Assembly: GCA_037200965.1 (NCBI GenBank)
Contig: JBBCGK010000001.1
Span: forward strand, 433,992 to 497,991
Length of the DNA: 64,000 nucleotides
Direction of reading: 5' to 3'
DNA from: a bacterium
GTDB lineage: Bacteria > Patescibacteriota > Minisyncoccia > Phycocordibacterales > Phycocordibacteraceae
A program made the translations under genes and the position numbers. Shown here one piece after another: positions 31,985 to 47,349 of the stretch (position 1 is its first letter; each line of letters opens with the position of its first letter). The notes beneath the pieces were generated by a model, which saw only the letters and a list, made by a program, of their open reading frames with translations, made no database searches and was not told the origin of the DNA.

Positions 31985-32311
31985 ATGCTAGTCCGTATAG
32001 CTATCCCCCTGGTACTTCTCGCCATTCTTGGCTTCGGGGTCGTGAAAGGACTGCCGCTTGTCCTCGGGCCCCGCATCGTCCTTTCTTCCCCCGCAGACGG
32101 GGCCGTTATTCCCGACGGATTCCTCGTGGTCTCCGGCACCGCGTACCGGATCGACTCGCTCACCCTCAACGGCGCAAAGATTCTCCCGGAGGCCAGCGGG
32201 CACTTCGAGAAGCTCCTGGTACTCCCTTCGGGGCATACTATACTGTCCCTGACCGCCGCCGACCGCTTCGGGAGGTCCACGATCCTTCGCCGCACGGTCG
32301 TCGTTCCGTAG
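31985..32311 (+). CDS. Hypothetical small membrane-anchored protein
   Basis: 108 aa, N-terminal TM. Confidence 0.4.
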   Translation: MLVRIAIPLVLLAILGFGVVKGLPLVLGPRIVLSSPADGAVIPDGFLVVSGTAYRIDSLTLNGAKILPEASGHFEKLLVLPSGHTILSLTAADRFGRSTILRRTVVVP

Positions 32312-32361
32312 TCCTTTGTTTCAGATTTATTTCATAACTTACCCGTTAGCCTTACGAAACC

Positions 32362-33411
32362 ATGGCCGCCAAGAAATCCGCAAAGACCGCAGAAAAAGAA
32401 AATCAGGCCGAAGGGGCCGCGCCTCAGTCCGACAAGCAGAAGTCTATCGACCGTGCGATCAAGGAAATCCAGACCAAGTTCGGCGATGAGGCCATCATGA
32501 CGTATGGCTCCACTTCCCCGGCAAAAATCGCATTCGTTCCGACGGGCTCGATCGGGCTCGACGCGGCGCTCGGGATCGGCGGGCTTCCCCGCGGCCGCAT
32601 CATCGAAATATACGGGCCAGAATCCTCAGGCAAGACGACGCTTGCGCTCCATGTGATAAGCGAAGCACAGAAGCTTGGCGGCATCTGCGCGTTCGTCGAC
32701 GCCGAACATGCGCTTGATCCGGAATACGCACGCAGGATCGGCGTACGGCTCCAAGAGCTTTTGATATCGCAGCCGGATACCGGCGAACAGGCGCTCGAGA
32801 TCGTCGAGAGCCTCGTGCGCGCCGGCTCGGTCGACGTGATCGTGGTCGACTCGGTCGCCGCGCTTACCCCGAAAGACGAGATCGAGGGCGACATGGGACA
32901 GGCCCAGATGGGCAAGCAGGCCAGACTCATGTCCCAGGCGCTCAGGAAGCTCACGGCCATCACCGCGAAGTCGAAGACCATCATCATTTTCATCAACCAG
33001 ATCCGCATGCAGCTCGGCGTGATGTTCGGGAATCCCGAGACGACGACCGGCGGCAAAGCCCTCAAGTTCTATACTTCCGTGCGCCTCGACATCAGGCGCA
33101 TCGCATCCATCAAGAAGGGCGAAGAAGTTGTCGGCGGGAGGGTGCGGGTGAAGGTGGTGAAGAACAAGGTGGCGGCGCCCTTTAAGACCACCGAGTTCGA
33201 TCTCCTCTATAACGAAGGCATCAGCCGCGAAGGCGAGCTTATCGCGCTTGGTGAGAAGTATGAGCTCGTGCAGAAATCAGGCAATACGTACAAATTCGGC
33301 GAACAGAAGCTTGCCGTCGGGTACGATGCTTCGCGCACCTTCCTCAGGGAGAACAAGGCTATCGCGAACGATCTTCTGAAGCAGATCAGAGCGAAGCTTG
33401 CGGAGGGGTAA
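32362..33411 (+). CDS. recA: Recombinase RecA
   Basis: GPESSGKTT Walker A, ...[22 protein letters not shown]... L2 region. Confidence 0.95.
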
Positions 33412-33417
33412 ATTCTT

Positions 33418-34158
33418 ATGAGGGAAGGATACGTCGCTCCGAAGCAATCAGGTGAGACATCGCCTGAAATGCGGATTACCGCTTGTATCGGAGCAAAGGC
33501 GGATTTCGACCCGTACACACGAGCAGATATACACGATTTGGACGCCATCCCCGTCGACTATTACGGGAACACAAAAAAATGGAACCGCTTCAATCAACTT
33601 AATGGAGGCGAGGGTACCTATGTAATTTCGGCCATCGATGCAAGCAATAAGGAATCGAAAGATTATCTCGACTGTACCGGTCTTGCCGCCGTAGGCACGG
33701 ATAAGAGATCTGGTGAAACTGTTTCGCTTTTGACTCATCAAGACCCCAAACAGATCGTACAAGAACACCGCGATCGGTACATTGTCGATATGACATCGCG
33801 TTTAATGGAATTGCATGACAACTGCTCCCCTCATTCAATCGATGTGATGCTTTTTGGTGGAGCGGCAAGGAATTCCGAAGATATGAAAGGGTACCGAGAA
33901 TCAATTATGCTTCTAAGGAAACTGTGCGAAAAGACCCTAGGCATCGATCCGCATGTCGTAGTAGGACCGAACAATCCTGATTTTAATCAATGGGATTGGG
34001 AGGTTGGAGCGGTACTCGATACCAAGCATCGGCGACTTTATATTACTCGAGCGCCACAAGATACAGTTCGTGATGCCGAAACTAGTTTTGGATTCAAAGC
34101 TTCTGAACTCGAAAACGTCGAGAGGCGGTGGCGAAACCCTTCCAACGGAAAAACTTAA
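33418..34158 (+). CDS. Hypothetical protein (246 aa) immediately downstream of recA
   Basis: 7-nt spacing after recA; slightly lower GC; not RecX-like. Confidence 0.5.
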   Translation: MREGYVAPKQSGETSPEMRITACIGAKADFDPYTRADIHDLDAIPVDYYGNTKKWNRFNQLNGGEGTYVISAIDASNKESKDYLDCTGLAAVGTDKRSGETVSLLTHQDPKQIVQEHRDRYIVDMTSRLMELHDNCSPHSIDVMLFGGAARNSEDMKGYRESIMLLRKLCEKTLGIDPHVVVGPNNPDFNQWDWEVGAVLDTKHRRLYITRAPQDTVRDAETSFGFKASELENVERRWRNPSNGKT

Positions 34159-34177
34159 TGGGTATCGTTTAGAATTT

Positions 34178-34513
34178 CTAGGCTTGTACTGAAATAGCAG
34201 CAGAAAAAACAAACGCCCGCGCGGTCTCGCGCGCAAGATAGACAACCGCCACGAGCACGACGAGCGAAAGCAGCTGTACCGGCAGGCGTGTGTCAAGAAA
34301 TGCAGAGACCCAGAAGTGCATAAAGGCGTTTATATGCGCGAGCGACGGCGCGTTCGCAAATACCTTCGCCACCCACACTTCCCTGCCGATGCCGTAGAGC
34401 GCGAATGCGGCAAGAATAAGTGCCCCGGTCTCGAGGCTCAGGGCCATGCGCGAAGCGCGTATGATGCGCACCCGGCGCATCACGGTTTTCTGGATCGCAG
34501 AGGTTGGTTCCAT
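34178..34513 (-). CDS. Small membrane protein, possible anti-sigma factor
   Basis: 111 aa with TM helices directly downstream of the ECF sigma gene. Confidence 0.35.
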   Translation of the reverse strand: MEPTSAIQKTVMRRVRIIRASRMALSLETGALILAAFALYGIGREVWVAKVFANAPSLAHINAFMHFWVSAFLDTRLPVQLLSLVVLVAVVYLARETARAFVFSAAISVQA

Positions 34514-34526
34514 ACGGAAAAGATAA

Positions 34527-35111
34527 CTAGCGCTGCTTGTTAAAAGTTTCCCTGAAAAGCTTCTTCGCCCGGTGTACCCGCGTCTTCACGGCCGAGACGC
34601 TCGCGCCTTCTATTCGCGCCATTTCCTCTTGGTTTTTTCCTTCAAGGAATTGGAGTCTCAAAAGCCTTGCGGCGGACTCCGGAAGCTTCGCGAGCGCCTG
34701 GAGCACCTCGTCCCTAGCGGTAAGGTCAGCAACGAAATCCTCGCGGTCGGCGATGCGCTCGAAGCTTTCGGGCTCTAACTCGGTGCGCACGCCCCGCTCG
34801 GCTTTCAGTTTCTGATACTTGGTATAGGCGACCCGGTTGAGGATGGCATACGCCCAGGAAGAGAAGCTCGCGCCCTCCTGGGCCTCATAGCGGTCGGCGT
34901 AGAGGTATATGCGGGTGAAGGCGTCCTGCACCGCCTCTTCCGCGTCCTCGTCGCTCCGGAGTATCGCTTTGGCCCGCCGGAGCAGGGGTGCCTCGTAGCG
35001 GGCGACGAGGATGGCGAAATGCTCGGGAGAACTTCGGGAAAGGACGAGTATCTCGGCGTCGGGAAGCTCGGGGGCCGCCTCTCTTGAAAAGCTCATAATA
35101 GCCTGTATCAT
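34527..35111 (-). CDS. RNA polymerase sigma-70 factor, ECF subfamily
   Basis: Region 2 (...FTRIYLYADRY...SSWAYAILNR...) and region 4 HTH (...MARIEGASVSAVKTRVHRAKK...). Confidence 0.85.
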   Translation of the reverse strand: MIQAIMSFSREAAPELPDAEILVLSRSSPEHFAILVARYEAPLLRRAKAILRSDEDAEEAVQDAFTRIYLYADRYEAQEGASFSSWAYAILNRVAYTKYQKLKAERGVRTELEPESFERIADREDFVADLTARDEVLQALAKLPESAARLLRLQFLEGKNQEEMARIEGASVSAVKTRVHRAKKLFRETFNKQR

Positions 35112-35186
35112 ACGCTACATCCGCGGGTCGGACATTTTTTATAACCGCCCTTCCCCGCCGTTAGTTTCAAGCACTAATCAATCCCT

Positions 35187-35762
35187 ATGGCAGTACTCAG
35201 CTACAACGAGATAGTCCCGAAGGTCGTGATCGAATACGAAGGCGCTCCGTACGAGGTGCTCTCCTCGCACGTGTTCCGCATGCAGATGAGGAAGCCCGTG
35301 AACCAGACCAAGCTCCGAAGCATGCTCACGGGCAAGGTCACCGAGATATCCTTTCACCAGAGCGAAACGGTCAAGGAAGCCGATATCTCGACTATGGAAG
35401 CGAACTATCTCTATACCAACCGCGGCCAGTCGTGGTTTGCCGAAACCGGCAACGCGAAGAACCGTTTCTTTTTCGAGGAGGACGCCGTATCTGACAAGGT
35501 GAAATACCTGGTCCCAAATTCGGAAGTCGAGATATTCCAATACGAGGGCAAGCAGGTCTCCGTGAAGATTCCGGTCAAGATCGATCTTAAAGTCACCGAC
35601 GCTCCCCCGGCCGTCAAAGGAAACACCGCCCAGGGCGGCAGCAAGCTCGTCACGCTTGAGAGCGGGGCGACCGTAAACGTTCCGCTCTTCATAAACGAGG
35701 GGGATATCCTCCGCCTCAACACGGACACGGGCGAATACGTGGAACGGGTCGAGAAAGCGTAA
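35187..35762 (+). CDS. efp: Elongation factor P
   Basis: 191 aa with the three-domain EF-P pattern (KPGKG-like region ...QMRKPVNQTKL...). Confidence 0.85.
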   Translation: MAVLSYNEIVPKVVIEYEGAPYEVLSSHVFRMQMRKPVNQTKLRSMLTGKVTEISFHQSETVKEADISTMEANYLYTNRGQSWFAETGNAKNRFFFEEDAVSDKVKYLVPNSEVEIFQYEGKQVSVKIPVKIDLKVTDAPPAVKGNTAQGGSKLVTLESGATVNVPLFINEGDILRLNTDTGEYVERVEKA

Positions 35763-35766
35763 AGCG

Positions 35767-35797
35767 AAATGGCGGGACCCCGGGGTCCCGCCATTTA
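35767..35797. terminator. Rho-independent terminator after efp
   Basis: aaatggcgggacccc/ggggtcccgccattt palindrome. Confidence 0.65.
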
Positions 35798-35817
35798 CTG
35801 CAGCTCCGTTTCTTCGA

Positions 35818-36369
35818 TCATCGTGACCTCCGGCCGGTCCGAACGGTCACGGAAGAGTCCGAAGCGACGAACGTCAGTCCGTCAGGCGTAAGCGCGTAGG
35901 GAAGGAGGAAATATGATTTTCCCTGCGGTACGCCATATTCGCCTTCCCGTCCGAACCATTGCGAGCGAATACCAAAGACGGTGAAAACCCGCGCGACCGC
36001 GATTACGCGGCACGCTCCCGCGCCGGAGATCGCGACAAATCGCGCTCTTGCTACGCGTAGCGATACCGCATGCTCGAGCCTCTGCGTCATGTCGTGCCGA
36101 GCTACCGCTTGAACGACTGGTTCCGGCCATTTCAAACATTCAGCCGCTTTCACGCTTGCCGCCCGAATCTCGGCTACAGTCAATCGCCCGCCGACCGCTG
36201 ACGGGCGATCATACAGGTCGACAGACCAATCAAGCGCCATGATGAACATCATCCCGAGCGTGAATATGATGCTCGACCTCGGGATTGCCGCCTCTACTTC
36301 GGCAAGCAGTCTTTGCAACGTTTTGAGCCCAAGCACCGCAGCGCGCCGAGGCCAGGTTTGAATCCGCAT
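35818..36369 (-). CDS. Hypothetical membrane protein
   Basis: 183-aa ORF; no motif. Confidence 0.35.
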   Translation of the reverse strand: MRIQTWPRRAAVLGLKTLQRLLAEVEAAIPRSSIIFTLGMMFIMALDWSVDLYDRPSAVGGRLTVAEIRAASVKAAECLKWPEPVVQAVARHDMTQRLEHAVSLRVARARFVAISGAGACRVIAVARVFTVFGIRSQWFGREGEYGVPQGKSYFLLPYALTPDGLTFVASDSSVTVRTGRRSR

Positions 36370-36454
36370 CGCTTTCGGGCCTCGTTAAGGTACGGGCGGC
36401 ACCCCGTGTGCCGCCGCTTCCTGAAGCGGAGAGTGCCACAGCAAAAATGTAAAC

Positions 36455-36482
36455 GCAAGAAGGCGGTAAAAACCGCCTTCTT
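36455..36482 (-). terminator. Terminator of the rpsF-ssb-rpsR operon
   Basis: aagaaggcgg-taaaaa-ccgccttctt hairpin followed by a T-run on the minus strand. Confidence 0.55.
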
Positions 36483-36501
36483 GTAGTTTGCCTAACGAGA
36501 A

Positions 36502-36708
36502 TTACGCCGCGAGGTACGGCATGAGGGCCATGTAGCGGGCGCGCTTTATCGCCTGCGTGATATCGCGCTGCTTTCCGGCCGGAAGTCCGGTGCGCTTTCT
36601 GGGGAGCATCTTCGCGTGCGGGCTCGTGAACTGGCGAAGATATTCCACATCCTTGTAATCGATGTGCTTCTTAAGCTCTACCTCTTCCCGTTCGGATTGA
36701 TATGCCAT
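36502..36708 (-). CDS. rpsR: Ribosomal protein S18
   Basis: ...YKDVEYLRQFTSPHAKMLPRKRTGL...KRARYMALMPY. Confidence 0.9.
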   Translation of the reverse strand: MAYQSEREEVELKKHIDYKDVEYLRQFTSPHAKMLPRKRTGLPAGKQRDITQAIKRARYMALMPYLAA

Positions 36709-36718
36709 AGGTGATTAT

Positions 36719-37168
36719 TTAAAACGGAATGTCTTCCGGGTTGATGTCTTCGTCCGGGTACTGGATCTCGTCGGCGGGCGCGCCCTTGTCCTGGCTTCCC
36801 TCTCCCGCGCCCTCCTGGCCGCGGGTACCTCCGCCCATTCCGGCACCCGCAGGACCGAACTGGAAGTTCTCGACGACGATCTCGGAGCGGTACTTCTTCT
36901 GCCCTTCGCTCTCCCAGGAACGGGTCTGCATGCGGCCTTCGACGAAGATCGCCTTGCCTTTCTTCATGTACTGGCCGATAACTTCCGCCTGGCGGCCGAA
37001 CGCCACGATGTTATGGAACTCGGTCGACTCCTGCTTCGCCCCCTCCTTGTTCTTGTATGTACGGTTGGTCGCGATCGAAAACGACGCGACTTGCTGGCCC
37101 GAAGGGAGCGCGCGGAGTTCCGGATCGCGGGTGAGGTTGCCGTAGACGAAAGCTTTGTTGAGATACAT
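36719..37168 (-). CDS. ssb: Single-stranded DNA-binding protein
   Basis: OB-fold N-terminus (NKAFVYGNLTRDPELR), Gly-rich linker, acidic tail ending DIPF. Confidence 0.9.
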   Translation of the reverse strand: MYLNKAFVYGNLTRDPELRALPSGQQVASFSIATNRTYKNKEGAKQESTEFHNIVAFGRQAEVIGQYMKKGKAIFVEGRMQTRSWESEGQKKYRSEIVVENFQFGPAGAGMGGGTRGQEGAGEGSQDKGAPADEIQYPDEDINPEDIPF

Positions 37169-37180
37169 CTGGGTAAGGTA

Positions 37181-37669
37181 TTAGACGGTCGTAGCCGTTT
37201 CAAGCGCCGCGTCGAGCTCGACTTCGGAGATGCCCTCCTCCTTTTGCGGAACCTGCATGCGGATAGAGCGCAGATCGGCCGCATGACGAGCGGCCTCACG
37301 GTCAGTCTTCACATCGATAAAGCGAATGATGCGCTTCTCTTCCCCCGCTTTCGAGATAACTGCAGCATGTCCTTCGCCTTTCGCTTCATATGCGATCCAT
37401 GCGAAGAACGCGCTGTTGAAGTCGCGGCGTCCGCCTACATCGCTTCTTGAGATGGTGTACGCGAGCGGGATACTTTCCGGCTCTCCCTCGGCAACGATCT
37501 CGCCTGCGGCTTCTGCCGCATCGCGGATGCCCTGATAGACCTTCTTCACTTCCTCGCTTGGAAGCTCGGGGTCGATATGGAAACCAAGCTCGTATACGCG
37601 GGCCTCGCCATCATCGATGTCGGCGTCGAATTCCGCGCTCTCCGCTGCCTGATCCTTCTTCTTGGCCAT
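37181..37669 (-). CDS. rpsF: Ribosomal protein S6 (with acidic N-terminal extension)
   Basis: ...RVYELGFHIDPEL...FFAWIAYEAKGE... S6 fold; first gene of the rpsF-ssb-rpsR operon. Confidence 0.8.
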   Translation of the reverse strand: MAKKKDQAAESAEFDADIDDGEARVYELGFHIDPELPSEEVKKVYQGIRDAAEAAGEIVAEGEPESIPLAYTISRSDVGGRRDFNSAFFAWIAYEAKGEGHAAVISKAGEEKRIIRFIDVKTDREAARHAADLRSIRMQVPQKEEGISEVELDAALETATTV

Positions 37670-37726
37670 AATAGGGGCATCCTAGCACGCTGCCCTACCC
37701 CTCGCAAGGCAGCTTTAAAGCGTAAA

Positions 37727-38524
37727 TCAGGCGAGCTTAAAGATCCGCCTGGCGTTTATAAGAAGCGCTTCGCGGACAGTTTCGACTTCCTCCCCGCGGA
37801 TGCGGGCGATGGCGGAGACGACATCCATGACGGCCAAAGGATCGTTCCTCTTCCCCCTGCGGGATGAGGGAGCGACGTAGGGAGAATCGGTTTCGGAGAG
37901 AAGGTGCGTAAGGGGCGCGGCGCGTACCACCTCGTCATAGTCGTGGGTAAAAGTGAGCACGGCCGTATAGGACGTAGTGAAATCAAGCGCGAAGAGCTTG
38001 CGCGCCTCTTCGATGCCGCCTACGAAGAAATGTACATTTCCGGTAAGGCGGTCTCCGTGCTCGCGCTTCGCGCTTTCGAGAATATCGATGAGATCGCTAT
38101 ATGCGTCGACCGTTCCCTTGGAAGGCCGCGCATGAATCATCAGGGGCTTCCCGGTCTCGGCTGCAAGCACGACATGGCTCTCGAATACCGCTCGCTGTTT
38201 TTTCTTCGCTTCGTCGCTTGTATCAACGGGGCGGAAATAGTCTAGCCCGCACTCCCCTATCGAAACTACCTTCGGGTGCGCGGCAAGCGAGCGGAAGGCC
38301 GTCTCGTCGAATCTTTCTTCGGGCGTGTCGTTCGGATGGAGTCCGACAGAGGCGTAGAAGTCGGGACGGCTCTCCACGAGGACTATCGCCTGCTCGGAAG
38401 ACTTCCGGTCGACGCCGACAACGATGCCGCCGACCTCATTCTCCGCAAGATTCTCGAAGAGCCTTCCTCGGTCCTCGTCGAACAGGTCGAACTGGACGTG
38501 GCAATGCGCATCGAAATACTTCAT
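37727..38524 (-). CDS. tatD: TatD family metal-dependent hydrolase/DNase
   Basis: MKYFDAHCH...GECGLDY...HxR...ETDSPY motifs. Confidence 0.85.
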   Translation of the reverse strand: MKYFDAHCHVQFDLFDEDRGRLFENLAENEVGGIVVGVDRKSSEQAIVLVESRPDFYASVGLHPNDTPEERFDETAFRSLAAHPKVVSIGECGLDYFRPVDTSDEAKKKQRAVFESHVVLAAETGKPLMIHARPSKGTVDAYSDLIDILESAKREHGDRLTGNVHFFVGGIEEARKLFALDFTTSYTAVLTFTHDYDEVVRAAPLTHLLSETDSPYVAPSSRRGKRNDPLAVMDVVSAIARIRGEEVETVREALLINARRIFKLA

Positions 38525-38558
38525 GCGGTTGAACGATAGCATAAAAAGGTCTGAGTGA

Positions 38559-38594
38559 GTTGCACAACCTCCTTTTTACGAACGATCCTGCAGG
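38559..38594 (+). repeat. CRISPR-like repeat copy 1 (distal)
   Basis: Exact 36-mer, 34 bp upstream of the tatD start on the opposite strand. Confidence 0.9.
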
Positions 38595-38603
38595 TTAAAA
38601 GCC

Positions 38604-38912
38604 GTGACTGATTTTCATCGAAAGCACGGCTACGACGTGGGGACCGGGAACATGGCGGTCATGTCGCTCAGAATTGGACTACTCATAGAAGAACTGGGTG
38701 AACTCCACGCCGTGGTTTCAAAGGGTGTTGGCGACATTTCAGAGGAACACGCAGACCTCTTGTATCTACTTCTTGGAAACTGCGTCACGCTTGGTATTGA
38801 TATAGAAACTGCTTTCTTTGCAAAACATGCCATTAACATGCGGAGGGAAGCCAAGGTAGTGAGGGGGAACCGCCGTGTATCGGATTGGTCCCATGAAAAA
38901 TCTCAGGAATGA
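38604..38912 (+). CDS. MazG-like all-alpha nucleoside-triphosphate pyrophosphohydrolase
   Basis: ...RIGLLIEELGELHAVVSKG...EEHADLLYLLLGNCVTLGIDIE... EExxE/ExxD metal-binding helices. GTG/ATG start ambiguous; the reading frame is open straight through repeat 1. Confidence 0.65.
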   Translation: MTDFHRKHGYDVGTGNMAVMSLRIGLLIEELGELHAVVSKGVGDISEEHADLLYLLLGNCVTLGIDIETAFFAKHAINMRREAKVVRGNRRVSDWSHEKSQE

Positions 38913-39940
38913 AAGCTACAGTCATCATCGGTGCGCAGTATGGCAGCGAAGGAAAAGGTAAGATTGCAGCTTATCTTTCAGATGAGTTCGCTCGTGCAGT
39001 TCGAACTGGCGGGCCAAACTCGGGGCATACCGTCGAGCGCAATGGCACGTTCTATCAAGTTCGAGCGGTCCCTAGTGCCTTCGTGAACCAACAATGTCGC
39101 CTCGCGATTGGTGCCGGGGCCATAATAAACACTGCCGTACTATTAGGAGAATTAACGGCATGTGGTATTGTCGAGGGGCGTTTGATAGTTGACCCTCAGG
39201 CTGTCATAATTGATGAAGAATATCAAAATTCGGAACTAGATTTAATCAGTTCGATTTCGTCCACCGGACAAGGCGTTGGTGCAGCAATCGCAGCTAAGGT
39301 CTTACGTCGGAAAGTAACTCTCGCAAGAGACGTGCCCGAGTTGCGGCCACTGCTTGCCGATGTTGCTGGCACGATCAATTCCGAACTCCAACAAGGCCTA
39401 GCTGTAATGATTGAGGGGTCGCAAGGATTTTTCTTGAGTTTGCATCATGGTTACTATCCGTTTGTAACAGGCAGGGAAACGACCGCAAGTTCATTTTGCG
39501 CCGAAGTAGGAATCGGTCCCAAAGATGTGGGTCAAGTGATTGGAGTTCTCCGCACCCACCCGATTAGAGTTGGCGGCCCTTCGGGACCTCTTCAAGACGA
39601 AATCGATTGGCAGACCGTCACCGCCGAGTCGGGCTACCCAACACCGCTGTTAGAGATAACTACCGTTACCAAACGAATTCGACGCGTCGGGAGGTTCTCA
39701 ATGGCCGAAGCTAAACGATCTTTGATGATCAATTCGGCGACCCAAATTGCTTTAAACTTCGTCGACTACTTGGACCATGCAAACTTTGGACTTAGAAGCT
39801 ACACCGCACTGACTGCTTCAACAAAAAAATTCATCGACGCACTAGAGACACAAACGGGAGTTCCCGTTTCGCTGGTGGGCACGGGGCCCCGTAACAGCGA
39901 TATGATAGACTTACGACGCGAAAAGAACCTCCCCCATTAG
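38909..39940 (+). CDS. Adenylosuccinate synthetase family protein, short form (343 aa; PurA/PurZ-like)
   Basis: GAQYGSEGKGKI P-loop (Ser where PurA has Asp13), GGPNSGHTV, STGQGVGAA, MIEGSQGFFLSLHHGYYPFVTG, ITTVTKRIRRVGRF, GTGPRN. It is ~90 aa shorter than housekeeping PurA and overlaps the MazG-like gene by 4 nt. Confidence 0.75.
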   Translation: MKATVIIGAQYGSEGKGKIAAYLSDEFARAVRTGGPNSGHTVERNGTFYQVRAVPSAFVNQQCRLAIGAGAIINTAVLLGELTACGIVEGRLIVDPQAVIIDEEYQNSELDLISSISSTGQGVGAAIAAKVLRRKVTLARDVPELRPLLADVAGTINSELQQGLAVMIEGSQGFFLSLHHGYYPFVTGRETTASSFCAEVGIGPKDVGQVIGVLRTHPIRVGGPSGPLQDEIDWQTVTAESGYPTPLLEITTVTKRIRRVGRFSMAEAKRSLMINSATQIALNFVDYLDHANFGLRSYTALTASTKKFIDALETQTGVPVSLVGTGPRNSDMIDLRREKNLPH

Positions 39941-39948
39941 ATACCAGC

Positions 39949-40701
39949 ATGAAAAACCAATACTTTGGCGACTTGAGCGACTATAAGAAGTACGGTTTGC
40001 TGCGCACACTTTCGATTGAGGGTGAGTGCTCGCTCACTGTGTGTTGGATGCTGACGCGAGATGATCAAAGTACCGACGGGCGGCATACAACTTATTTGGC
40101 GGACGTAAGAGAATGGCGCAACCATGAGCCGTTGGTATTTGATCTACTCGCGGACGCAGTCTTCAAAAATTCCCGTAATCTCGAAATAGTTGAAAAGTCC
40201 GGACTAATACCGAACTCAAACTACTTTCGTGAGGAAATCGGCGATGCTCCCTCCCAACGGGAAGCTTTTTTTGCCCGATTGGCAGATGAAGCCCGCAATT
40301 CTGATATTGTGTTCTTGGACCCCGACAACGGCCTTGAAGTGAAGTCAGTCCCCTATGGCTCCAAGGGAGCACATAAGTACATTTATCGGTCTGAAATCGA
40401 AAAGTTATCTCGGAATGGACTTTCAATCTTGCTGTATCAACATTTTGGTCGGAAAGAACGGTCTGAGTTTATCCGAGCTATTGCATTGAAACTCATCGAT
40501 TGGCTGAATGTGGAGGAAGTATTTTCACTTCGGACGACGCATACCGTATTTTTTCTTGTGCCGAAAGCTGCCCACAGGTCGCGAATAGATCGATCCCTCC
40601 AGGCAGTAAATAGACAATGGGGAGATAAGATCTTTATCGAGATACACTCTAAGGAGTCTGTATCAACGGTTACAACGAAAAATCAGTTAGACCTACTCTA
40701 A
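39949..40701 (+). CDS. Hypothetical protein (250 aa) co-transcribed with the PurA-like gene
   Basis: ...YFGDLSDYKKYGLLR...VFLDPDNGLEVKS...KYIYRSEIE...; family not recognised. Confidence 0.5.
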   Translation: MKNQYFGDLSDYKKYGLLRTLSIEGECSLTVCWMLTRDDQSTDGRHTTYLADVREWRNHEPLVFDLLADAVFKNSRNLEIVEKSGLIPNSNYFREEIGDAPSQREAFFARLADEARNSDIVFLDPDNGLEVKSVPYGSKGAHKYIYRSEIEKLSRNGLSILLYQHFGRKERSEFIRAIALKLIDWLNVEEVFSLRTTHTVFFLVPKAAHRSRIDRSLQAVNRQWGDKIFIEIHSKESVSTVTTKNQLDLL

Positions 40702-40774
40702 GTAAGTGAGCAACATGGATATTGGAAAGGAGCCTGACTTCGCCTCGGATGCCTACTTTGATAATCCGCAACAA

Positions 40775-40810
40775 GTTGCACAACCTCCTTTTTACGAACG
40801 ATCCTGCAGG
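40775..40810 (+). repeat. CRISPR-like repeat copy 2
   Basis: Exact 36-mer. Confidence 0.9.
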
Positions 40811-40878
40811 ACGATATCCACAAATCACTGCTGCGCAGCGCGGGCCTCGCGCATCTCTCGGCGGATGAGATTGGGGAC

Positions 40879-41427
40879 TTGAGGGACTTGGCAGCGCATG
40901 AGCTACGGAATGAGACCGCGGACCGCGGTGGTCTCATGGCGGGATTGCGACTGCGCCTGCAACAATGCGACACACGGCTATCACGCCTTACAGACGCGCT
41001 CCTCGACCACCTCATCGAAAAGCAGGAATACGAAGCCAAGAAGGCCGCGCTCCTGGGCGAGCGGCGCGAACTGCTAGACAAACTGGAAAGCCCGGAGGCT
41101 TCGCGTCAACCCGCCGACGGCGTGCTGCAAGCATTGGAACTGCCAGATGTCGTGGAAACACGCTACGAAATGGCTTTGCCGGACCAACGGCGCCGCATTG
41201 CGTCTGCAATCGCTTGGAACCTAACTGGTAGCGGAAAAGAGGCCGTACCTGAGCTGAAATCTCCGTACCGGGAGATCGTACAGTGGCGTCTTTCCAATCC
41301 GGTGCGCCGTAACGGGGAGCGATCGGAACCTGACATAAAGCTGCTATACGAAGCGCTCAAAGAAGTCTGCCGGCGAGAAGACAAGCCGCCGCAACGTCCC
41401 CAACGTCCTGATGTCTCCGGCATATAA
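40879..41427 (+). CDS. Hypothetical protein / possible 5'-truncated gene fragment (coiled-coil region)
   Basis: No ATG start. The frame is open back to repeat 2 (...TILQDDIHKSLLRSAGLAHLSADEIGDLRDLAAHEL...); ...LDHLIEKQEYEAKKAALLGERRELLDKLE coiled coil. Confidence 0.35.
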   Translation: MRDLAAHELRNETADRGGLMAGLRLRLQQCDTRLSRLTDALLDHLIEKQEYEAKKAALLGERRELLDKLESPEASRQPADGVLQALELPDVVETRYEMALPDQRRRIASAIAWNLTGSGKEAVPELKSPYREIVQWRLSNPVRRNGERSEPDIKLLYEALKEVCRREDKPPQRPQRPDVSGI

Positions 41428-42724
41428 GGCGACATACTTTTTCGAGAATTGTCGCGCCTTATGCCGCGTGAATGTCAGGCAGATGCTGTTCTGCATGGAT
41501 GCGAGCATCAGCTACTTCGCCCGCACCAACTTCCGCAACCGAAACCAGCTCTTCGGTGTGAGGCAAGCCGACCGTCTTTCGCACCTGTACGTCATCGGCA
41601 AGACTGGCACGGGCAAGTCCACCCTCCTTGAAACCCTCGCCCGGCAAGACCTTCGGGCCGGGCGCGGCTTCGCCCTCATAGACCCGCACGGCGATCTCGT
41701 GGAACGGATCGCGAGGGACGCGCCGGAAGCCGTCTATCTGAACGCCCCCGATCCCTCCCAGCCCTTCGGCTATAATCCGCTCCGGAGGGTCAGGGACGAC
41801 AAGATACCGCTTGCCGTCTCGGGCTTCCTCGAAACCCTCAAGAAGCTCTGGCCCGACGCGTGGGGCGTGCGCATGGAGCACGTCCTTAGGAATACGCTGT
41901 ATGCGCTATTCGAGCAGGAGGATGCGCGGCTTCCCGATATCCTCCGCCTCTATGCCGACGAGACATACCGGAAGGCGCTCGCCAAGGGGATTAGGAACGA
42001 TACCGTCCGCCGCTTCTGGCTCCATGAGTTCGAGCACTTCCACTTTCGCCAGAGGGCGGACGCCGTGGCTCCGATACAAAACAAGATCGGGGCGCTCCTT
42101 GCCGACCCCACGCTCTATCGCATCCTCGTCGAGCCAAAGGAGGATATCCGCTTCCGTGCCCTCATGGACGGCGGCGGGGTTCTTCTGGTCAATCTCTCGA
42201 AGGGCAAACTTGGCGAGGACAGCTCGCACATCCTCGGCGCGCTCATCGTCTCGACCCTGGGCCTTGCTGCCTTTAGTCGGGCCGACAGTCCCCCAACCTC
42301 CCGCCGCCCTTTCTTCGTCTATATCGACGAATTCCAGTCCTTCACGACCCTTATGCTCGCCGACATGATGTCGGAGCTGCGGAAGTACGGCGTGGGCCTT
42401 ACCTTGGCGCACCAATATATGCACCAGCTTGAACCCGAGATACGGCATGCGGTTCTGGGGAACGCTGGGACGCTCATATCATTCCGTGTTGGCCCCGAGG
42501 ATGCGTCAATCCTGGCGAAGGAGTTTCAGCCGACGTTTGACACACACGATCTCCTGAACCTGCCTAACCACCATATCTATCTGAAGCTGATGATTGATGG
42601 GGTGCCGGGCGGGGCGTTTAGTGCAAATACAGTCGATCATTCGACGCGGGGAGAGACAAAGCTCGCACCGCTACGAAGGACTTCAGACTTGAATGCGGGC
42701 GAAAGCGCGTCTGACTATGTGTGA
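41411..42724 (+). CDS. P-loop ATPase of the HerA/FtsK/T4-coupling-protein (DUF87/TraD-like) class
   Basis: Walker A GKTGTGKST, Walker B FFVYIDEFQSF, ...LTLAHQYMHQL... Confidence 0.7.
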   Translation: MSPAYKATYFFENCRALCRVNVRQMLFCMDASISYFARTNFRNRNQLFGVRQADRLSHLYVIGKTGTGKSTLLETLARQDLRAGRGFALIDPHGDLVERIARDAPEAVYLNAPDPSQPFGYNPLRRVRDDKIPLAVSGFLETLKKLWPDAWGVRMEHVLRNTLYALFEQEDARLPDILRLYADETYRKALAKGIRNDTVRRFWLHEFEHFHFRQRADAVAPIQNKIGALLADPTLYRILVEPKEDIRFRALMDGGGVLLVNLSKGKLGEDSSHILGALIVSTLGLAAFSRADSPPTSRRPFFVYIDEFQSFTTLMLADMMSELRKYGVGLTLAHQYMHQLEPEIRHAVLGNAGTLISFRVGPEDASILAKEFQPTFDTHDLLNLPNHHIYLKLMIDGVPGGAFSANTVDHSTRGETKLAPLRRTSDLNAGESASDYV

Positions 42725-42859
42725 GCGGGATCACGTTTTTTTGCAGATGGCACGCCCGCGTGGGCTGTTTTGGTAATTGCCATAGCGTCTTGGCAACAAC
42801 TGGGCGTCAGTACCTGGCTTCCCTCACAGGTTGAATATATTACAGTATAGCTCAACCAT

Positions 42860-43864
42860 ATGTTGAGTCGCCGCATGCCCGGTATTACCGAATTACTTTT
42901 GAAAATCGCGCCCAAGATCGGCGCAAAAGTGCTGATCGAGCCTGAGTGGGGCTACGTCGGGCAAATCGCCTTCCGAAGCGGTCGCAAGCGGTACTTCCGG
43001 TTCTCCAGCGTTGACGTGAATACGCTGGGCGCATCGGAAGTCGCGAAGGACAAAGATTTTGCGAACTTCTTCATGAAGCACATGGGTTATCCCATCGTGA
43101 AAGGAAAAACGTTCTTCCGGGACGACTGGGCAGAGACAATCCGCTCCAAGCGAAAGATCACGGCCGCCTATCGATACGCGCGACGGCTGGGATTTCCGGT
43201 GATTGTGAAGCCTAACAGCGGCAGTCAGGGGAAAGCAGTATGCTTGGCTCGCACGAAGCGTCAATTCTATCGCGGAATGCGGGCGACCTTTGAGGTGGAC
43301 AAAGTCGCGCTTGTCCAAATACCTGTTTCAGGAAAAGACTACCGCATCGTGGTCTTGGACCGAGAAATCATTTCGGCGTACTACAGGGTTCCGCTAAGCG
43401 TCGTCGGCAATGGAAAAGCTTCCGTAGCGGCGTTGCTCAAGTCGAAGCAGAAAGAGTTTCGGCGCGCCGGGCGCGACACGGCGATCAGGGCCGACGATCC
43501 GCGCATAGCGGAAAAGCTCGAGCATCAGGGACTGAGCTTCGCTTCCGTTCTCCGAAAGGATCAAAAGGTTTTTCTTTTGGATAACGCCAACCTTTCGACG
43601 GGCGGCGAATCGGAAGACGTAACGGAAAGCGTGCACAAGGAGTTCAGGAAAATCGCGGTGTCGCTTACGAGGGATATGGGACTGCGCCTGTGCGGCGTCG
43701 ATCTCATGATAGACGGGGATATCTCGGAGCCGCCCAAAACGTATTGGGTGCTTGAAGTCAATTCGGCCCCGGGGCTCGATCATTATGCGAAAAGCGGCGC
43801 GGCACAAAACAAAATCGTCGAAAAGATGTATACGACGGTGCTTAAGAGCTTGGATCGTGACTAG
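42860..43864 (+). CDS. ATP-grasp domain protein (RimK/cyanophycin-synthetase-like ligase)
   Basis: ...PVIVKPNSGSQGKAV...YWVLEVNSAPGL... ATP-grasp signatures. Confidence 0.65.
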   Translation: MLSRRMPGITELLLKIAPKIGAKVLIEPEWGYVGQIAFRSGRKRYFRFSSVDVNTLGASEVAKDKDFANFFMKHMGYPIVKGKTFFRDDWAETIRSKRKITAAYRYARRLGFPVIVKPNSGSQGKAVCLARTKRQFYRGMRATFEVDKVALVQIPVSGKDYRIVVLDREIISAYYRVPLSVVGNGKASVAALLKSKQKEFRRAGRDTAIRADDPRIAEKLEHQGLSFASVLRKDQKVFLLDNANLSTGGESEDVTESVHKEFRKIAVSLTRDMGLRLCGVDLMIDGDISEPPKTYWVLEVNSAPGLDHYAKSGAAQNKIVEKMYTTVLKSLDRD

Positions 43865-43956
43865 CTCGTGTATAGTCCATACGACCGATCTTCCTGACAC
43901 CAATAGGCATCGGCCAAATCGTGATTGCTGACCAACGTTTTGCGCCGAGCGACCGC

Positions 43957-44247
43957 CTAGTCGGGATCGTAGGGATTATTGGTATCCGTGCCATTGCGCG
44001 AGGAACCAGACGGCGAACTATACGGATCGACGCGCTTGTGACCTTGCTCGCCCGTATAGGGGTTCACGTTTGGATACGTCGAGTAATTGTTATAGGGATT
44101 GCTGTCAGGCGATGAGCGATGGTGTGGCGGAACATACGTGCCGTCCTTCCGCACATAGCCTCTGACACTGACGTCCTTCGCTGCCGCCTCAGCGCCAGTG
44201 GCCAGCAGGGTCGTGAAGACCAAAAGGGCGGCAAAAATCTTGCGCAT
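43957..44247 (-). CDS. Small secreted protein with NPY repeats
   Basis: Signal peptide MRKIFAALLVFTTLLATGAEAA; ...RKDGTYVPPHHRSSPDSNPYNNYSTYPNVNPYTG... Confidence 0.5.
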   Translation of the reverse strand: MRKIFAALLVFTTLLATGAEAAAKDVSVRGYVRKDGTYVPPHHRSSPDSNPYNNYSTYPNVNPYTGEQGHKRVDPYSSPSGSSRNGTDTNNPYDPD

Positions 44248-44357
44248 ATTAACTCCGATCAAAAATGCGGCTCGATGCTAGTTTAGTGGCTGGCGCAGGG
44301 CCAGAGGAATAATCTTCGCAAGCGTGCGTCAGGCCACGCCCTACGGTAACGCGTCGA

Positions 44358-45341
44358 TCAGTTCGCCTCGTCGAAAATCCCATTCAGGATCGCCCCAAGC
44401 CGCACCCCTGCCGCCTGCAAGCGCTCTTCCACGATGGCGGCGCGGTCTTCCTTGTAGTTGCCGTCGGGCGCGAAGACGCGAACGGCGCCACCGGTATACG
44501 TCTCGCTGTCTTCGGAATAGCGGCAGGTGGTGCCGGAGAGCGTACAGTATCCGGTGTCGGGCGCGCGGGAGACGGTGAGCGATTCGTTGGCCCATACCAT
44601 CGGATCGAGCGACGCCTTCCACGTTGCCCGCTGCTCGTCCGTGATTTCCTTTTGAAGAACATTGCCAAACGCCTCGCGCCCAGGGCCTGCTGGCTTCGTC
44701 TGCGCGATGTGGAGATCACGCATGACTTGTTCGGGAATGCAGGTGTCCCACACGGTATGGAGCGCGGTTTTGCCGTCATAGGCGCAGCCCGAGACGCCCT
44801 TCACGCCGACGCTGTTGCCGCCGCGATCATCGGCATACGAAATGTGGAGCGGCTGGTGTATGTCGCCGAGCCAGTGCCCGAGGAATTTGAGGGCCGTGCG
44901 CTTCTTGTCGGTTGAGGCATTCGGGTCTTTGAGGATGGCGATATCGGCGGGGATGGCCGTGAAAAGGCACGTCGCCGCATTCACGCACTTGGCCTCGGGG
45001 AAGCTCGTCCAATCGCGCGGCATATTGATGAAGTGCTCCGCCCTCCGGCTGCTTTGCACATCGCCCTTCTCGTCCGGCCAGGTGCAGGCCCCGTGGAAGG
45101 TTCTCGGTATCTCCTTGCCGTCAGCGTCCTTAAGCGGGGTTTCTGAGCGGATAAGCTTGTTGACCGCCTTGCGGGCCGTCGGCGTGAGCTCCTTGTATGC
45201 GATCTCGCAGACCGCCTCGTGGCCGGTGCCGCCGAAGGCGAGGGCACCGCTCGTTGTGAGACAAAGACTGACGAAGCCACCAGCTCCAAACAGCGCAAGA
45301 AGAACCCGCCGACGTCCACCCATGTACCCGCTCCCCCTCAC
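44358..45341 (-). CDS. S1/P1-family zinc-dependent nuclease, secreted
   Basis: ...FGGTGHEAV... N-terminal Trp/His zinc site and ...LKFLGHWLGDIHQPLH... motif. Confidence 0.75.
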   Translation of the reverse strand: MRGSGYMGGRRRVLLALFGAGGFVSLCLTTSGALAFGGTGHEAVCEIAYKELTPTARKAVNKLIRSETPLKDADGKEIPRTFHGACTWPDEKGDVQSSRRAEHFINMPRDWTSFPEAKCVNAATCLFTAIPADIAILKDPNASTDKKRTALKFLGHWLGDIHQPLHISYADDRGGNSVGVKGVSGCAYDGKTALHTVWDTCIPEQVMRDLHIAQTKPAGPGREAFGNVLQKEITDEQRATWKASLDPMVWANESLTVSRAPDTGYCTLSGTTCRYSEDSETYTGGAVRVFAPDGNYKEDRAAIVEERLQAAGVRLGAILNGIFDEAN

Positions 45342-45453
45342 TATTCGTGCCCAGGATGCGAGGACTCGCCCTAGCCGAAGAACGGATGATGCCCGGATGA
45401 TTTCACCCGTCCAAGAGGAATGTGCGCCTTAGACTTCGTATCGGGCCGGGCCT

Positions 45454-46359
45454 ATGCTGCTTCTATTGGTGGGGTGTTTCTCAGGGGGTATTGGCATGAC
45501 TAGCGGCACGCGAGTTTTTCCGACGCGTTCGTATCGGGCATCATTTCCCATTCATGCGCTTCTTGCCGTCTTCGCGCTTCTCGTCGCGGGTGCGTATGGC
45601 CCGGCCGGTTCGGCCTTGGCCGCGACCAGCGCGGCGTCCTTCTGCCTTGACGCATGCCCCGAGGGCGCGCCGGCAAAGAACAAGACGGTCGTGCACCATG
45701 TCTATGCGCTCAGCTCGAACCCCGACACGAAATTCGCCGATTGGGTCGCGTACAAGATCTCCAAAGCGACCATCGGGTCGAACTGTTCGCGCAAGTGGGC
45801 GAAGGACCCGGACCTAGCGGCCGGCACCACGCTCAAGCCCGCCGATTACAAGGACATCAGTGCGGCGCTCCAGTCCGACCGGGGCCATCAAGCGCCCTTG
45901 GCAAGCCTATGCGGCTCGAAGTTCAATGCCGAGGCGAACTATCTCTCGAACATCACCCCACAAAAGTCCGACCTCAATCAGGGCGCATGGGTGCGGCTCG
46001 AAACCGCCGAACGCAAGCTCATTACGGGCGGCACCGCGAAGACCGTGTATACCGTCACCGGGACGCTCTACGAAAAGAAGATGCCGCCGCTTCCCAAGGC
46101 GAGCGTCAAGCACAAAGTCCCTTCGGGCTATTGGAAGATCGTCGCCGTCGAGACGGACGACGGGATCGACGCCGTGGCGTTCGTCATGCCGCAGGATACA
46201 CCCAAAGCCGCCGATTATTGCGAAACGCGCACCACCATCGGCGACGTTGAGACGCGCTCGGGCCTCAAGTTCTTCCTCGATCTCAACGAGACCGACCGCA
46301 CGCAGCTTGAGGAGAGCGAGGCGAAGACCGGCCTCTATGAGGATTTGGGCTGCGAGTAG
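45454..46359 (+). CDS. DNA/RNA non-specific endonuclease (Serratia/NUC family), secreted
   Basis: ...SDRGHQAPLASL... DRGH active-site motif; signal peptide. Alternative start at 45496. Confidence 0.75.
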   Translation: MLLLLVGCFSGGIGMTSGTRVFPTRSYRASFPIHALLAVFALLVAGAYGPAGSALAATSAASFCLDACPEGAPAKNKTVVHHVYALSSNPDTKFADWVAYKISKATIGSNCSRKWAKDPDLAAGTTLKPADYKDISAALQSDRGHQAPLASLCGSKFNAEANYLSNITPQKSDLNQGAWVRLETAERKLITGGTAKTVYTVTGTLYEKKMPPLPKASVKHKVPSGYWKIVAVETDDGIDAVAFVMPQDTPKAADYCETRTTIGDVETRSGLKFFLDLNETDRTQLEESEAKTGLYEDLGCE

Positions 46360-46381
46360 CACGAGCGCGGGAAGATACGGC

Positions 46382-46669
46382 ATGCGCAAGGCATTCATAC
46401 TGACGCTGGTGGCGTTCTCCGCACTTGCGGCAACCCCACTCATCGCGCGGACCACGGATGCGGAAGTCCGGGGACAAATGATCCGCGAGTCCATCGCAAG
46501 CTATCCCGGCAACTGCCCGTGTCCGTACAGCACGATGCGAAACGGGCGCTCCTGCGGCGGGCGAAGCGCGTACAGTCGGCCCGGCGGATATGCTCCGCTG
46601 TGCTACCCGTCTGACGTTTCGGACGATATGGTGCGCGGCTATCGAAGCACGCATGGGCTCGGGAACTGA
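46382..46669 (+). CDS. Small secreted Cys-rich protein (95 aa)
   Basis: MRKAFILTLVAFSALAATPLIA signal peptide; CPCPYSTMRNGRSCGG. Confidence 0.5.
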   Translation: MRKAFILTLVAFSALAATPLIARTTDAEVRGQMIRESIASYPGNCPCPYSTMRNGRSCGGRSAYSRPGGYAPLCYPSDVSDDMVRGYRSTHGLGN

Positions 46670-46865
46670 TCGATCCGATTGATATCTGGCGAAGCGCGCA
46701 AACGCTCATCTCGCTCTATGGCGATGAGGCGGAACAGTTCGCGCTTCGCCGCGCCGCTACCCTGCTCGGCGAAGGAGACCGGGAGGGCCATGCGGCAATG
46801 GCAAGCGTTGCGGAAGCGGTGAAGAAGCTGCGGCAGGAGCGGCCCGAAAGCGGCGATGCCGTCCA

Positions 46866-47339
46866 CTAGTCGGCGTCCGGCAGCTTATCGGAAGCCTCGG
46901 CAAACTCCCGCACCAGCGCGACGATGTGCTTGCGCCGGGCGGGCGACTTGACCTGCGCGAACGCTCTCGCAAGCGCCCGCCCGTCGGCGCTCGAAAGCAG
47001 CGGCATTTCTTCCGCGAACAGTGCCGAACGGGCTTTGTCGTATGCCTCGGAAACGAAGTATTCCCAGGGCAGATCAAGCACCACCATCATCCGCAACAGC
47101 GCTTCAAGCGGCAGCCGGTTGGTTCCCTTTTCATACTTCTGCATCTGTTGGAAACTAACGCCGAGGCGCTTTCCGAGAGCGAGTTGCGACAGGCCGCGCA
47201 GCGTCCGTGCGGCAAATATCTTTTGGCCGATAATCTTATTGATCTCTGACGAACTGTGCTTGCGCGGGGCCATTCTCAATCCCGTTATACTATCGATCTC
47301 GCAAATTCTATGGCGCGAAAACCCCATTGTCGCGCGCAA
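46866..47339 (-). CDS. XRE-family helix-turn-helix transcriptional regulator
   Basis: ...LRGLSQLALGKRLGVSFQQMQKYEKGTNRLPLEAL... HTH_XRE. The start may be the internal Met at 47273. Confidence 0.75.
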   Translation of the reverse strand: MRATMGFSRHRICEIDSITGLRMAPRKHSSSEINKIIGQKIFAARTLRGLSQLALGKRLGVSFQQMQKYEKGTNRLPLEALLRMMVVLDLPWEYFVSEAYDKARSALFAEEMPLLSSADGRALARAFAQVKSPARRKHIVALVREFAEASDKLPDAD

Positions 47340-47349
47340 TCTCAGCCTG

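Follow-up and report, generated by a model that had tools for sequence, protein, structure and literature searches.

A fragment of an ICE-like operon encoding a predicted PurZ-lineage synthetase lies between CRISPR-type repeats of a patescibacterial cas1–cas2 locus

Introduction

How a gene resembling phage purZ comes to be in the genome of a patescibacterium, and what its product might do, are the questions raised by a 2,180-bp block within a 64,000-nucleotide stretch of contig JBBCGK010000001.1 (assembly GCA_037200965.1, positions 433,992–497,991). This whole stretch is referred to here as the window, and its coordinates are used throughout. The block encodes a 343-residue homologue of adenylosuccinate synthetase (PurA), preceded by a MazG-like pyrophosphohydrolase sequence and followed by a 250-residue protein. 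An initial annotation read it as a possible captured operon cassette reminiscent of the mazZ–purZ modules of phages whose DNA contains 2-aminoadenine (Z). We find that the block is an exact fragment of the cargo operon of a locus resembling an integrative and conjugative element (ICE), and that it sits precisely between two CRISPR-type repeats, in the place of a spacer.

The key enzyme of Z synthesis is thought to derive from archaeal PurA by way of PurZ0. The synthesis of Z has been reported only from phages (PMC13128860). Four archaeal PurZ-related sequences with Ser or Gly are mentioned briefly (PMC12884076), beyond which we found nothing relevant in the literature on PurZ-like defence systems; nor did we find anything relevant on kilobase-long CRISPR spacers.

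Results

The block is a fragment of an ICE-like operon

The block is identical, with zero mismatches, to positions 8647–10826 of L001, an ICE-like locus on a second contig of assembly GCA_037975565.1, the same assembly that contains the match to the window. This source contig, of about 4.0 Mb, is separate from that of the window match and filed under the same accession. The identity ends exactly at the two flanking 36-nt repeats (Table 1), and the block is cut mid-gene at both ends. Its lowered G+C content, remarked upon in the initial annotation, is borne out at 48.5% against 57–60% in the flanks. The ICE-like markers of L001 are serine and tyrosine recombinases, a TrwB-type coupling protein, a relaxase and AlpA. 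The operon has a G+C content of 47–51% inside an element that is otherwise at 55–69%, and we therefore regard it as cargo. It spans L001:8071–11975 and comprises, in order, a P-loop kinase–MazG fusion (297 aa), a PurZ-lineage synthetase, an RlmJ-fold protein identical to the 250-residue protein of the window, and a cytochrome P450 (402 aa). Since the cuts fall inside the kinase–MazG gene and 20 codons into the P450 gene, the block is a fragment and not an intact operon. A related copy from an unrelated metagenome (L005/L006) has the fusion, a PurA-like protein, a 253-aa protein and a P450, followed by a convergent purB whose product passes the TIGR00928 cut-off. No purB, datZ, DpoZ or DCD-like gene is present in the 64-kb window, in agreement with the earlier statement that the Z-pathway partners are missing there.

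The consequences of the truncation are clearest in the first gene. The MazG-like open reading frame (ORF) annotated at 38604–38912 (102 aa, GTG start) is real, as is its 4-nt overlap with the next ORF, and it matches PRA-PH (29.5 bits against 21.3) and, weakly, MazG. It is not, however, a gene in its own right: it lies in a 105-codon remnant of the fusion gene. In L001 the fusion has an AAA_17/18 nucleotide-kinase domain at residues 10–132 and the PRA-PH/MazG domain at 217–266; the window keeps residues 193–297, so that the kinase domain is gone, together with some 10 residues at the start of the first MazG helix. The intact MazG–PurA cassette originally envisaged is thus not what the window holds.

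Table 1. Coordinates of the block, the repeats and the cas genes in the window
Feature	Position	Strand	Remarks
36-nt direct repeat, copy 1 (GTTGCACAACCTCCTTTTTACGAACGATCCTGCAGG)	38559..38594		left edge of block; six exact copies
2,180-bp block	38595..40774	+	identical to L001:8647-10826; junctions also in GCA_037975565.1, GCA_015655515.1 and a Logan contig (SRR10968228)
3' remnant of kinase–MazG fusion gene	38595..38912	+	105 codons in frame from 38595
343-aa PurZ-lineage adenylosuccinate synthetase homologue	38909..39940	+	intact; profile match, alignment, tree
250-aa RlmJ-fold protein	39949..40701	+	intact; class I methyltransferase-like
Start of cytochrome P450 gene	40715..40774	+	first 20 codons (20-21 residues match); cut by repeat
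36-nt direct repeat, copy 2	40775..40810		right edge of block
36-nt direct repeat, copies 3-6	51744, 53328, 54739, 57678 (span 51744..57713)	-	separated by low-GC segments, truncated genes
cas1 (58039-59094) and divergent cas2 (57746-58042)	57746..59094	-	profile matches; 31 bp from repeat copy 6

The block lies in spacer position at a cas1–cas2 locus

The repeats that flank the block belong to a cas1–cas2 locus, and the block is for this reason assigned to a spacer position. Cas1 is well supported by PF01867 (1e-63) and TIGR00287 (221.5 bits against a cut-off of 71.7); Cas2 is divergent and its match to PF09827 is weak (E = 0.003, under the cut-off). Genes for methionyl-tRNA synthetase (MetRS) and an AI-2E transporter follow past cas1, and no effector genes are found beside it, a statement that covers the neighbouring genes only, the rest of the ~0.96-Mb genome being unsearched. 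The 36-nt repeat forms a hairpin on the cas (reverse) strand only (−10.4 kcal/mol, z = −2.5). Rfam, searched at a permissive threshold over window positions 36000–60000, gave neither a CRISPR-DR nor any other RNA family, and an exact search for the repeat across GTDB representative genomes gave no match, so that the source species is absent from that set.

Ordinary CRISPR spacers are about 30–40 bp long. Here the five inter-repeat inserts measure 2180, 10933, 1548, 1375 and 2903 bp, the block itself being 50–60 times longer than a normal spacer, and nowhere in the array are there regular short spacers of about 25–50 bp. Four of the inserts are low in G+C, and the 10.9-kb insert (40811–51743) is host-like at 59.6%. 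Several of the inserts cut into genes: patatin and SpvB/FG-GAP genes run into repeats, and a recombinase frame is open from 40813, directly after repeat 2. In its bona fide Cas1 with a divergent Cas2, its identical hairpin-capable 36-nt repeats, and its foreign DNA joined exactly to the repeats, the locus resembles a CRISPR array with an adaptation module. It differs in having inserts of 1.4–10.9 kb and only six repeats, with no effector genes in view and no Rfam CRISPR-DR match. Casposons, a more distant comparison, have terminal inverted repeats, which are absent here, where the inserts are random gene fragments. In the mechanism that we propose, the Cas1–Cas2 module of this clade would have integrated a long DNA fragment with duplication of the repeat.

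In relatives of this Cas1 from other metagenomes, at 55–64% identity, cas1 is accompanied at the same distance by homologous 37-nt repeats (cas-strand consensus CCTGCA...TCGCAxAAAGG..TTGTGCAAC). These are spaced at 1.3–1.5 kb in contig L098 (4939–7793), at 7.7 kb in L096 (7323–15068) and at 220 bp in L105 (1432–1688). In the more distant L118 (16661–17892), units of an ordinary 74–76 bp are mixed with units of 388 and 508 bp. Many longer contigs with Cas1 relatives have a single repeat with no second copy within 1–3 kb.

Three other origins for the arrangement were considered and rejected. An integron cassette does not fit, as there is no IntI or other tyrosine integrase near the array, the repeats start GTTGCAC and not GTTRRRY, and the inserts cut through genes. 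Insertion of a mobile element into a normal spacer is excluded by an ICE identity that starts and stops at the exact repeat edges, and recombination with a mini-array borne by the ICE by the lack of a repeat copy on L001.

As to the other inserts, that at 40811–51743 encodes a 5'-truncated recombinase-like frame, a TraD/VirD4-like ATPase (PADLOC mad8, 1e-16; phrog_5156), a cyanophycin-synthetase-like ATP-grasp protein, an S1/P1 nuclease, a non-specific endonuclease, and LysR and GNAT proteins, and its SpvB/FG-GAP gene is cut by repeat 3. The 446-aa ORF of the 1.5-kb insert contains a 74-nt direct repeat (53046–53119 and 53174–53247; 74% identity, 128 nt apart), which probably reflects an internal repeat of the protein.

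The host genome

The window matches contig JBBCBH010010897.1 of GCA_037975565.1, a record of 960,259 bp, whose ends it wraps at 46708/46709 (window 29949–46708 is record 943500–960259; window 50461–56982 is record 3753–10274). We conclude that the host genome is circular and closed, at about 0.96 Mb. Circular genomes of this size are typical of ultra-small bacteria like those of the candidate phyla radiation, and the host is probably episymbiotic. Elsewhere in the window, positions 15000–21000 have a lowered G+C content (50–54% against ~60%) and strongly negative GC and AT skew.

The synthetase homologue belongs to the PurZ lineage

The 343-aa protein matches PF00709 (E = 7e-59) and, as the initial annotation had it, is ~90 residues shorter than bacterial PurA and carries serine in its P-loop, which reads GSEGKGK with Ser13 at the position of PurA Asp13. 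The motif G[S/G]E[G/A]KG is found in 120 of the 120 closest homologues, with Ser, or in a few Gly, where PurA has the aspartate. The PurA group examined in PMC12884076 retains Asp13 in 99% of cases. Serine in its place defines PurZ (S14 of phiVC8, S23 of S-2L) and contacts the 2-amino group of dGMP (PMC8342488; bioRxiv 10.1101/2025.10.22.683976). Other PurA-type residues are invariant, namely H40, Q172, N37, T119, T187 and R133, the equivalents of H41, Q224, N38, T129, T239 and R143.

Two loops are common to PurZ and PurZ0 and absent from both PurAs. The first, RVGGxSG...E.xW against RVG-AGPFPTE, is seen in the 343-aa protein as RVGGPSG...W234; the second, TTVTK(R/K)hRRV against T(V/T)TGRRRR, is seen as TTVTKRIRRV. 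The 343-aa protein retains Asp286 (D333 of Escherichia coli, in the guanine pocket), a residue shared with archaeal PurA and PurZ0 but not with the ATP-using PurZ, and GTP is therefore the probable phosphate donor. In one source the preference given for PurZ0 and PurZ is 'ATP and GTP, respectively' (PMC12884076), the reverse of its own introduction, in which PurZ uses ATP, and of other sources. We take this wording as probably a slip and have used the reading in which GTP goes with PurZ0.

In a distance-based neighbour-joining (NJ) tree on 330 columns, with a single archaeal PurA (Pyrococcus horikoshii), the Ser clade together with phage PurZ and PurZ0 excludes that PurA in 200 of 200 bootstraps, and the Ser clade is monophyletic in 92%. 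The protein thus groups with PurZ and not inside canonical PurA. PHROGs returned for it only a generic PurZ-type family. Taken together, motifs, loops and tree support its assignment to the PurZ lineage rather than to canonical PurA, and its activity is predicted on that basis.

With PurZ and PurZ0 (PDB 6FM1, 7ODX, 7VF6) the protein shares the short PurA fold, Ser for Asp13, the longer RVGGxSG...W loop and the TTVTK(R/K)hRRV aspartate loop. With PurZ0 it also shares the guanine-pocket aspartate, and DutZ is paralleled by the dUTPase/DCD-like neighbours of its relatives. It is nevertheless only 30–38% identical to these enzymes and, at 219.3 bits, does not reach the cut-off of 300 for the NCBIfam PurZ model NF038379. 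The genomic settings differ as well. The gene and its relatives are on ICE-like elements and on bacterial and archaeal chromosomes, with a kinase–MazG fusion, an RlmJ-fold protein, a P450, an RNase_H_2 protein and a deoxynucleoside kinase (dNK) as partners. There is no DatZ or S-2L-type MazZ in the window or the cellular PurZ-lineage loci, and no DpoZ; the gene set of the phage Z clusters (datZ, mazZ or dutZ, dpoZ) was not found, and the source is ICE-like. The proposed likeness to a MazZ–PurZ module accordingly holds for the serine, the loops and the tree, and fails for the MazZ determinants (see below), for DatZ and DpoZ, and for the phage context.

The MazG domain and its kinase fusion

The best solved relative of the first ORF is MazZ of S-2L (PDB 7ODY, E = 0.003), with 32% identity over ~100 residues of an all-alpha nucleoside triphosphate (NTP) pyrophosphatase domain. 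The metal ligands E29, E30, E33, E48 and D51 align with those of MazZ (EExxE...ExxD), so that the motif is intact, and here too the sequence lies directly upstream of, and overlaps, a PurZ-type gene. Grouping with housekeeping HisE, which would have spoken against a MazZ connection, was not seen (14.7 bits against a cut-off of 42.7). The differences from MazZ are the fusion of the native form to an N-terminal P-loop nucleotide kinase, the truncation in the window and the residues at the guanine-determining positions. Among the cellular PurZ-lineage loci, MazG occurs as this fusion in four only.

Both the kinase domain of the source fusion (1.5e-13) and stand-alone 186-aa neighbours of PurZ-lineage genes (4e-15) match the kinase part of the model for anti-phage dCTP deaminase (PADLOC dCTPase, NCBIfam NF041025), and DCD-like genes flank most PurZ-lineage genes. 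In the PurZ-lineage loci, unlike in that system, the PurZ-type enzyme is encoded between a kinase gene and a distinct DCD-like gene, and the DCD-like protein has no PADLOC match. A second AAA_18-type kinase-like sequence occurs in the window at 4679–5227 on the reverse strand, 24.6% identical (E = 2e-12) to the 186-aa PurZ-flanking kinase; no PurZ-like gene stands beside it.

The 250-residue RlmJ-fold protein

The 250-aa protein described in the initial annotation is present, and searches of Pfam, NCBIfam, PADLOC and PHROGs gave it no family match, with nothing meaningful among solved structures by sequence. Its family has more than 1,200 homologues, with invariant YxxDxxDxxKY, DPDNG and YQH motifs, and an RlmJ-like class I methyltransferase fold. 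Alignment of the family with E. coli RlmJ by hhalign is not significant (probability 0.13), and it is therefore only the fold that links the two. RlmJ, the 23S rRNA m6A2030 methyltransferase (PDB 6QE5, 2OO3), has four motifs in the same order, as judged by inspection only; it differs in that identity is 9%, its motif IV DPPY is DPDN (within DPDNG) here, the Gly-rich motif I is absent here, there is no Pfam match, and the present family is found on mobile elements and in defence islands. Longer members of the family, including one JGI-named Atl1 fusion, gave no domains in Pfam. The family also occurs alone, beside Fic and AbiEii genes or beside Schlafen/AlbA_2, HNH, SMODS and PLD genes (L124, L125/L126), and we regard it as a candidate for a role in defence or anti-defence that does not depend on PurZ.

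The wider clade and a predicted pathway

A pattern scan of 185,579 species-representative genomes yielded 547 loci of the PurZ-lineage clade, in taxa that include Dehalococcoidia, Acidobacteriota, Nitrospira, Bacteroidota, Firmicutes, Saccharibacteria, Nanoarchaeota, Halobacteria and Lokiarchaeia. Neighbours were counted at 84 PurZ-lineage loci. A DCD/dUTPase-like protein is the most frequent (64 of the 84), followed by a cluster of RNase_H_2(+DUF429) and AAA_18 kinase genes (55), the RlmJ-fold protein (30), dNK (19), P450 (7) and PurB (5). Nudix proteins also recur, and defence-like genes, RmuC and IetA-like AAA, are often adjacent. These partner genes are absent from viral PurZ-type loci.

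PurZ0 phages use the dUTPase-like DutZ to make dGMP (PMC12884076). A pyrophosphatase slot beside the PurZ-lineage gene appears to be filled interchangeably by MazG, DCD-like or Nudix proteins, as it is by MazZ, DUF550 and DutZ in Z-phages (PMC12884076). From these associations we predict that the native operon encodes a pathway from guanine to 2-aminoadenine nucleotides. The NTP pyrophosphatase (MazG here, DCD/dUTPase-like or Nudix elsewhere) would make (d)GMP from (d)GTP. The PurZ-lineage enzyme, with GTP as the probable donor, would phosphorylate O6 and add aspartate, giving N6-succino-2-amino-(d)AMP, from which PurB would remove fumarate to leave the 2-aminoadenine nucleotide, and the linked kinases would re-phosphorylate the latter. 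The role of such a pathway would be the rewiring of nucleotide pools by mobile elements and defence islands, and such rewiring might serve to defend against phages, by draining dGTP or by poisoning with Z, or to modify the DNA of the element itself.

Two further settings of the gene may be recorded. On L007 and L008, contigs of about 100 kb in which every gene lies on the same strand, a gene for an RlmJ-fold protein (233 aa) is placed directly upstream of a PurZ-lineage gene (349 aa); these contigs are phage-like, so that a probable virus also carries the pair. In Halothermothrix, Paenibacillus and Tissierella (L015, L016, L020, L022), the PurZ-lineage gene has a biosynthetic-cluster-like neighbourhood, whose ORFs, judged on sequence inspection alone, look like a Nudix protein, a pair of P-loop kinases, a carrier protein and a radical-SAM protein.

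Discussion

The combination that best explains the observations, and which we consider probable on balance, is that of an ICE-operon fragment held between CRISPR repeats and a PurZ-lineage 2-aminoadenine pathway encoded by the operon from which it came. A fuller account is offered tentatively, as a real possibility of which we are less than convinced: this Cas1–Cas2 clade keeps kilobase-long, gene-truncating fragments of foreign mobile elements between its CRISPR repeats as 'giant spacers', the block was copied from the ICE of a co-resident organism with a 4-Mb genome, and the captured DNA exposes a non-viral PurZ branch that may make 2-aminoadenine nucleotides in bacteria and archaea.

Several observations weigh against these proposals. 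The guanine determinants of S-2L MazZ, D60, I56 and K31, are G58, Y54 and L26 in the MazG part here; D60 and I56 are identified as such in PMC8342488. The 343-aa protein scores higher on the archaeal short-PurA model (361.8 bits) than on the PurZ model, and its predicted specificities for base (G or I) and sugar (ribo or deoxy) rest upon three motifs and one NJ tree in which archaeal PurA is represented once. Of all units in the array the block lies furthest from the cas genes, yet it is identical to its source, which is unexpected under leader-proximal acquisition. Two independent short-read contigs, L003 and L004, end exactly at 40774, with no matching break at the left junction (38594/38595), and there is therefore a second path at the right junction; it may be speculated that a longer version of the insert lies behind this break in part of the population. 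As the layout is known from assembled contigs, a recurrent artefact of assembly at the CRISPR repeats keeps a small probability. Finally, small-molecule biosynthesis would accommodate the P450 and the methyltransferase-fold protein no less well than DNA metabolism does.

The last point leads to an alternative in which the native operon is a small-molecule cluster, making a nucleoside or purine natural product, and not a DNA-precursor or defence pathway. The toyocamycin pathway, with its PurA/PurB-like pairs, offers precedents. Of the P450 models, the cyclodipeptide-associated and TxtE-type ones come closest to the P450 here, the methyltransferase-fold protein is at hand, and Nudix proteins and kinases are present, joined in the Firmicute loci L015, L016, L020 and L022 by ORFs that look on inspection like Nudix, carrier and radical-SAM proteins. 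The P450 is nevertheless confined to the 7 loci counted above, most loci having DCD/dUTPase-like, dNK and RNase_H_2 exonuclease-like genes and lying near RmuC and IetA-like AAA, and the RlmJ-fold family also occurs alone in defence islands. We regard this alternative as unlikely, and retain the 2-aminoadenine pathway as the preferred reading of the native operon.

Could the block, even so, be a functional captured MazZ–PurZ cassette that would make 2-aminoadenine DNA or deplete dGTP in this genome? The PurZ-type serine and loop signatures, the intact metal-binding motif of MazG and the intact purZ-like and rlmJ-like ORFs would allow it. However, the kinase domain, the start and part of helix 1 are missing from the first gene, only 20 codons of the P450 remain, a CRISPR repeat stands immediately upstream, and no PurB, DatZ or DpoZ is encoded in the window. 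A promoter and terminator scan of the block gave counts not above those in shuffled sequence, and PADLOC found no defence-family match for its three proteins. Moreover, that the block is 100% identical to the copy in the ICE speaks for recent passive capture and not for maintained function. A working cassette is in our view distinctly unlikely. Because the genes are antisense to the likely array transcript, and the promoter-like matches are at chance level, we infer that the block is stored DNA rather than a working operon in this genome. Of the 'captured module' of the initial annotation, capture stands, as that of a gene-truncating fragment between CRISPR-type repeats; no trace of a module at work in this genome was seen.

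An assembly artefact, in which the assembler would have joined an ICE fragment to a CRISPR locus whose true array has ordinary spacers, perhaps by way of short spacers matching the ICE, we judge improbable. It would account for source and copy being filed under one accession, for the breaks of L003 and L004 exactly at the right junction, and for the lack of ordinary spacers in the array. The layout is, however, reproduced in contig JBBCBH010010897.1 of GCA_037975565.1, in two contigs of GCA_015655515.1 and in Logan k=31 contigs from two runs. Among the Logan contigs, L004 consists of 28 nt of repeat and the 2,180-bp block, and L093 (1604 bp) and L210 (1431 bp) each consist of one segment with 28 nt of repeat at each end and no internal branch, which argues against a graph jump from spacer to protospacer, since this should leave such branches. 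The identity stops exactly at the repeat edges, with no residual spacer, and independent metagenomes with diverged repeats show the same kilobase spacing.

That the 343-aa protein is an archaeal-type short housekeeping adenylosuccinate synthetase, horizontally acquired and converting IMP to adenylosuccinate, is highly improbable: P. horikoshii PurA (PDB 2D7U/5K7X) is of the same length class and the best PDB match (235 bits, 43% identity), NF003295 is the best NCBIfam match, and the GTP-pocket aspartate and all phosphate and ribose contacts, including those to the IMP phosphate, are kept, but Asp13 has become Ser (Ser/Gly throughout the closest homologues, at a position almost invariant in PurA), the RV motif is followed by a loop insertion, K-R-I-R-R stands in place of GRRRR, the score falls below every PurA equivalog cut-off (368 for NF003295, narrowly missed; 246.6 bits against 395.55 for TIGR00184), the archaeal enzyme lies outside the Ser clade and PurZ group in the NJ tree, and the clade is patchy, in accessory and mobile contexts.

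The existence of a large, patchy clade of cells and mobile elements, sister to PurZ and bearing its diagnostic serine, makes the origin of the Z pathway directly testable. The clade has partners of its own, in dUTPase/DCD-like, MazG or Nudix pyrophosphatases, nucleotide kinases and sometimes PurB, and one possibility that it opens is that Z is made, or dGTP drained, by cells or conjugative elements as a means of defence or of DNA camouflage. If the kilobase inserts are real, Cas1–Cas2 can integrate fragments 50–300 times longer than known spacers; this would bear on the transition from casposons to CRISPR and would represent a new way for bacteria with small genomes to archive or acquire foreign DNA.

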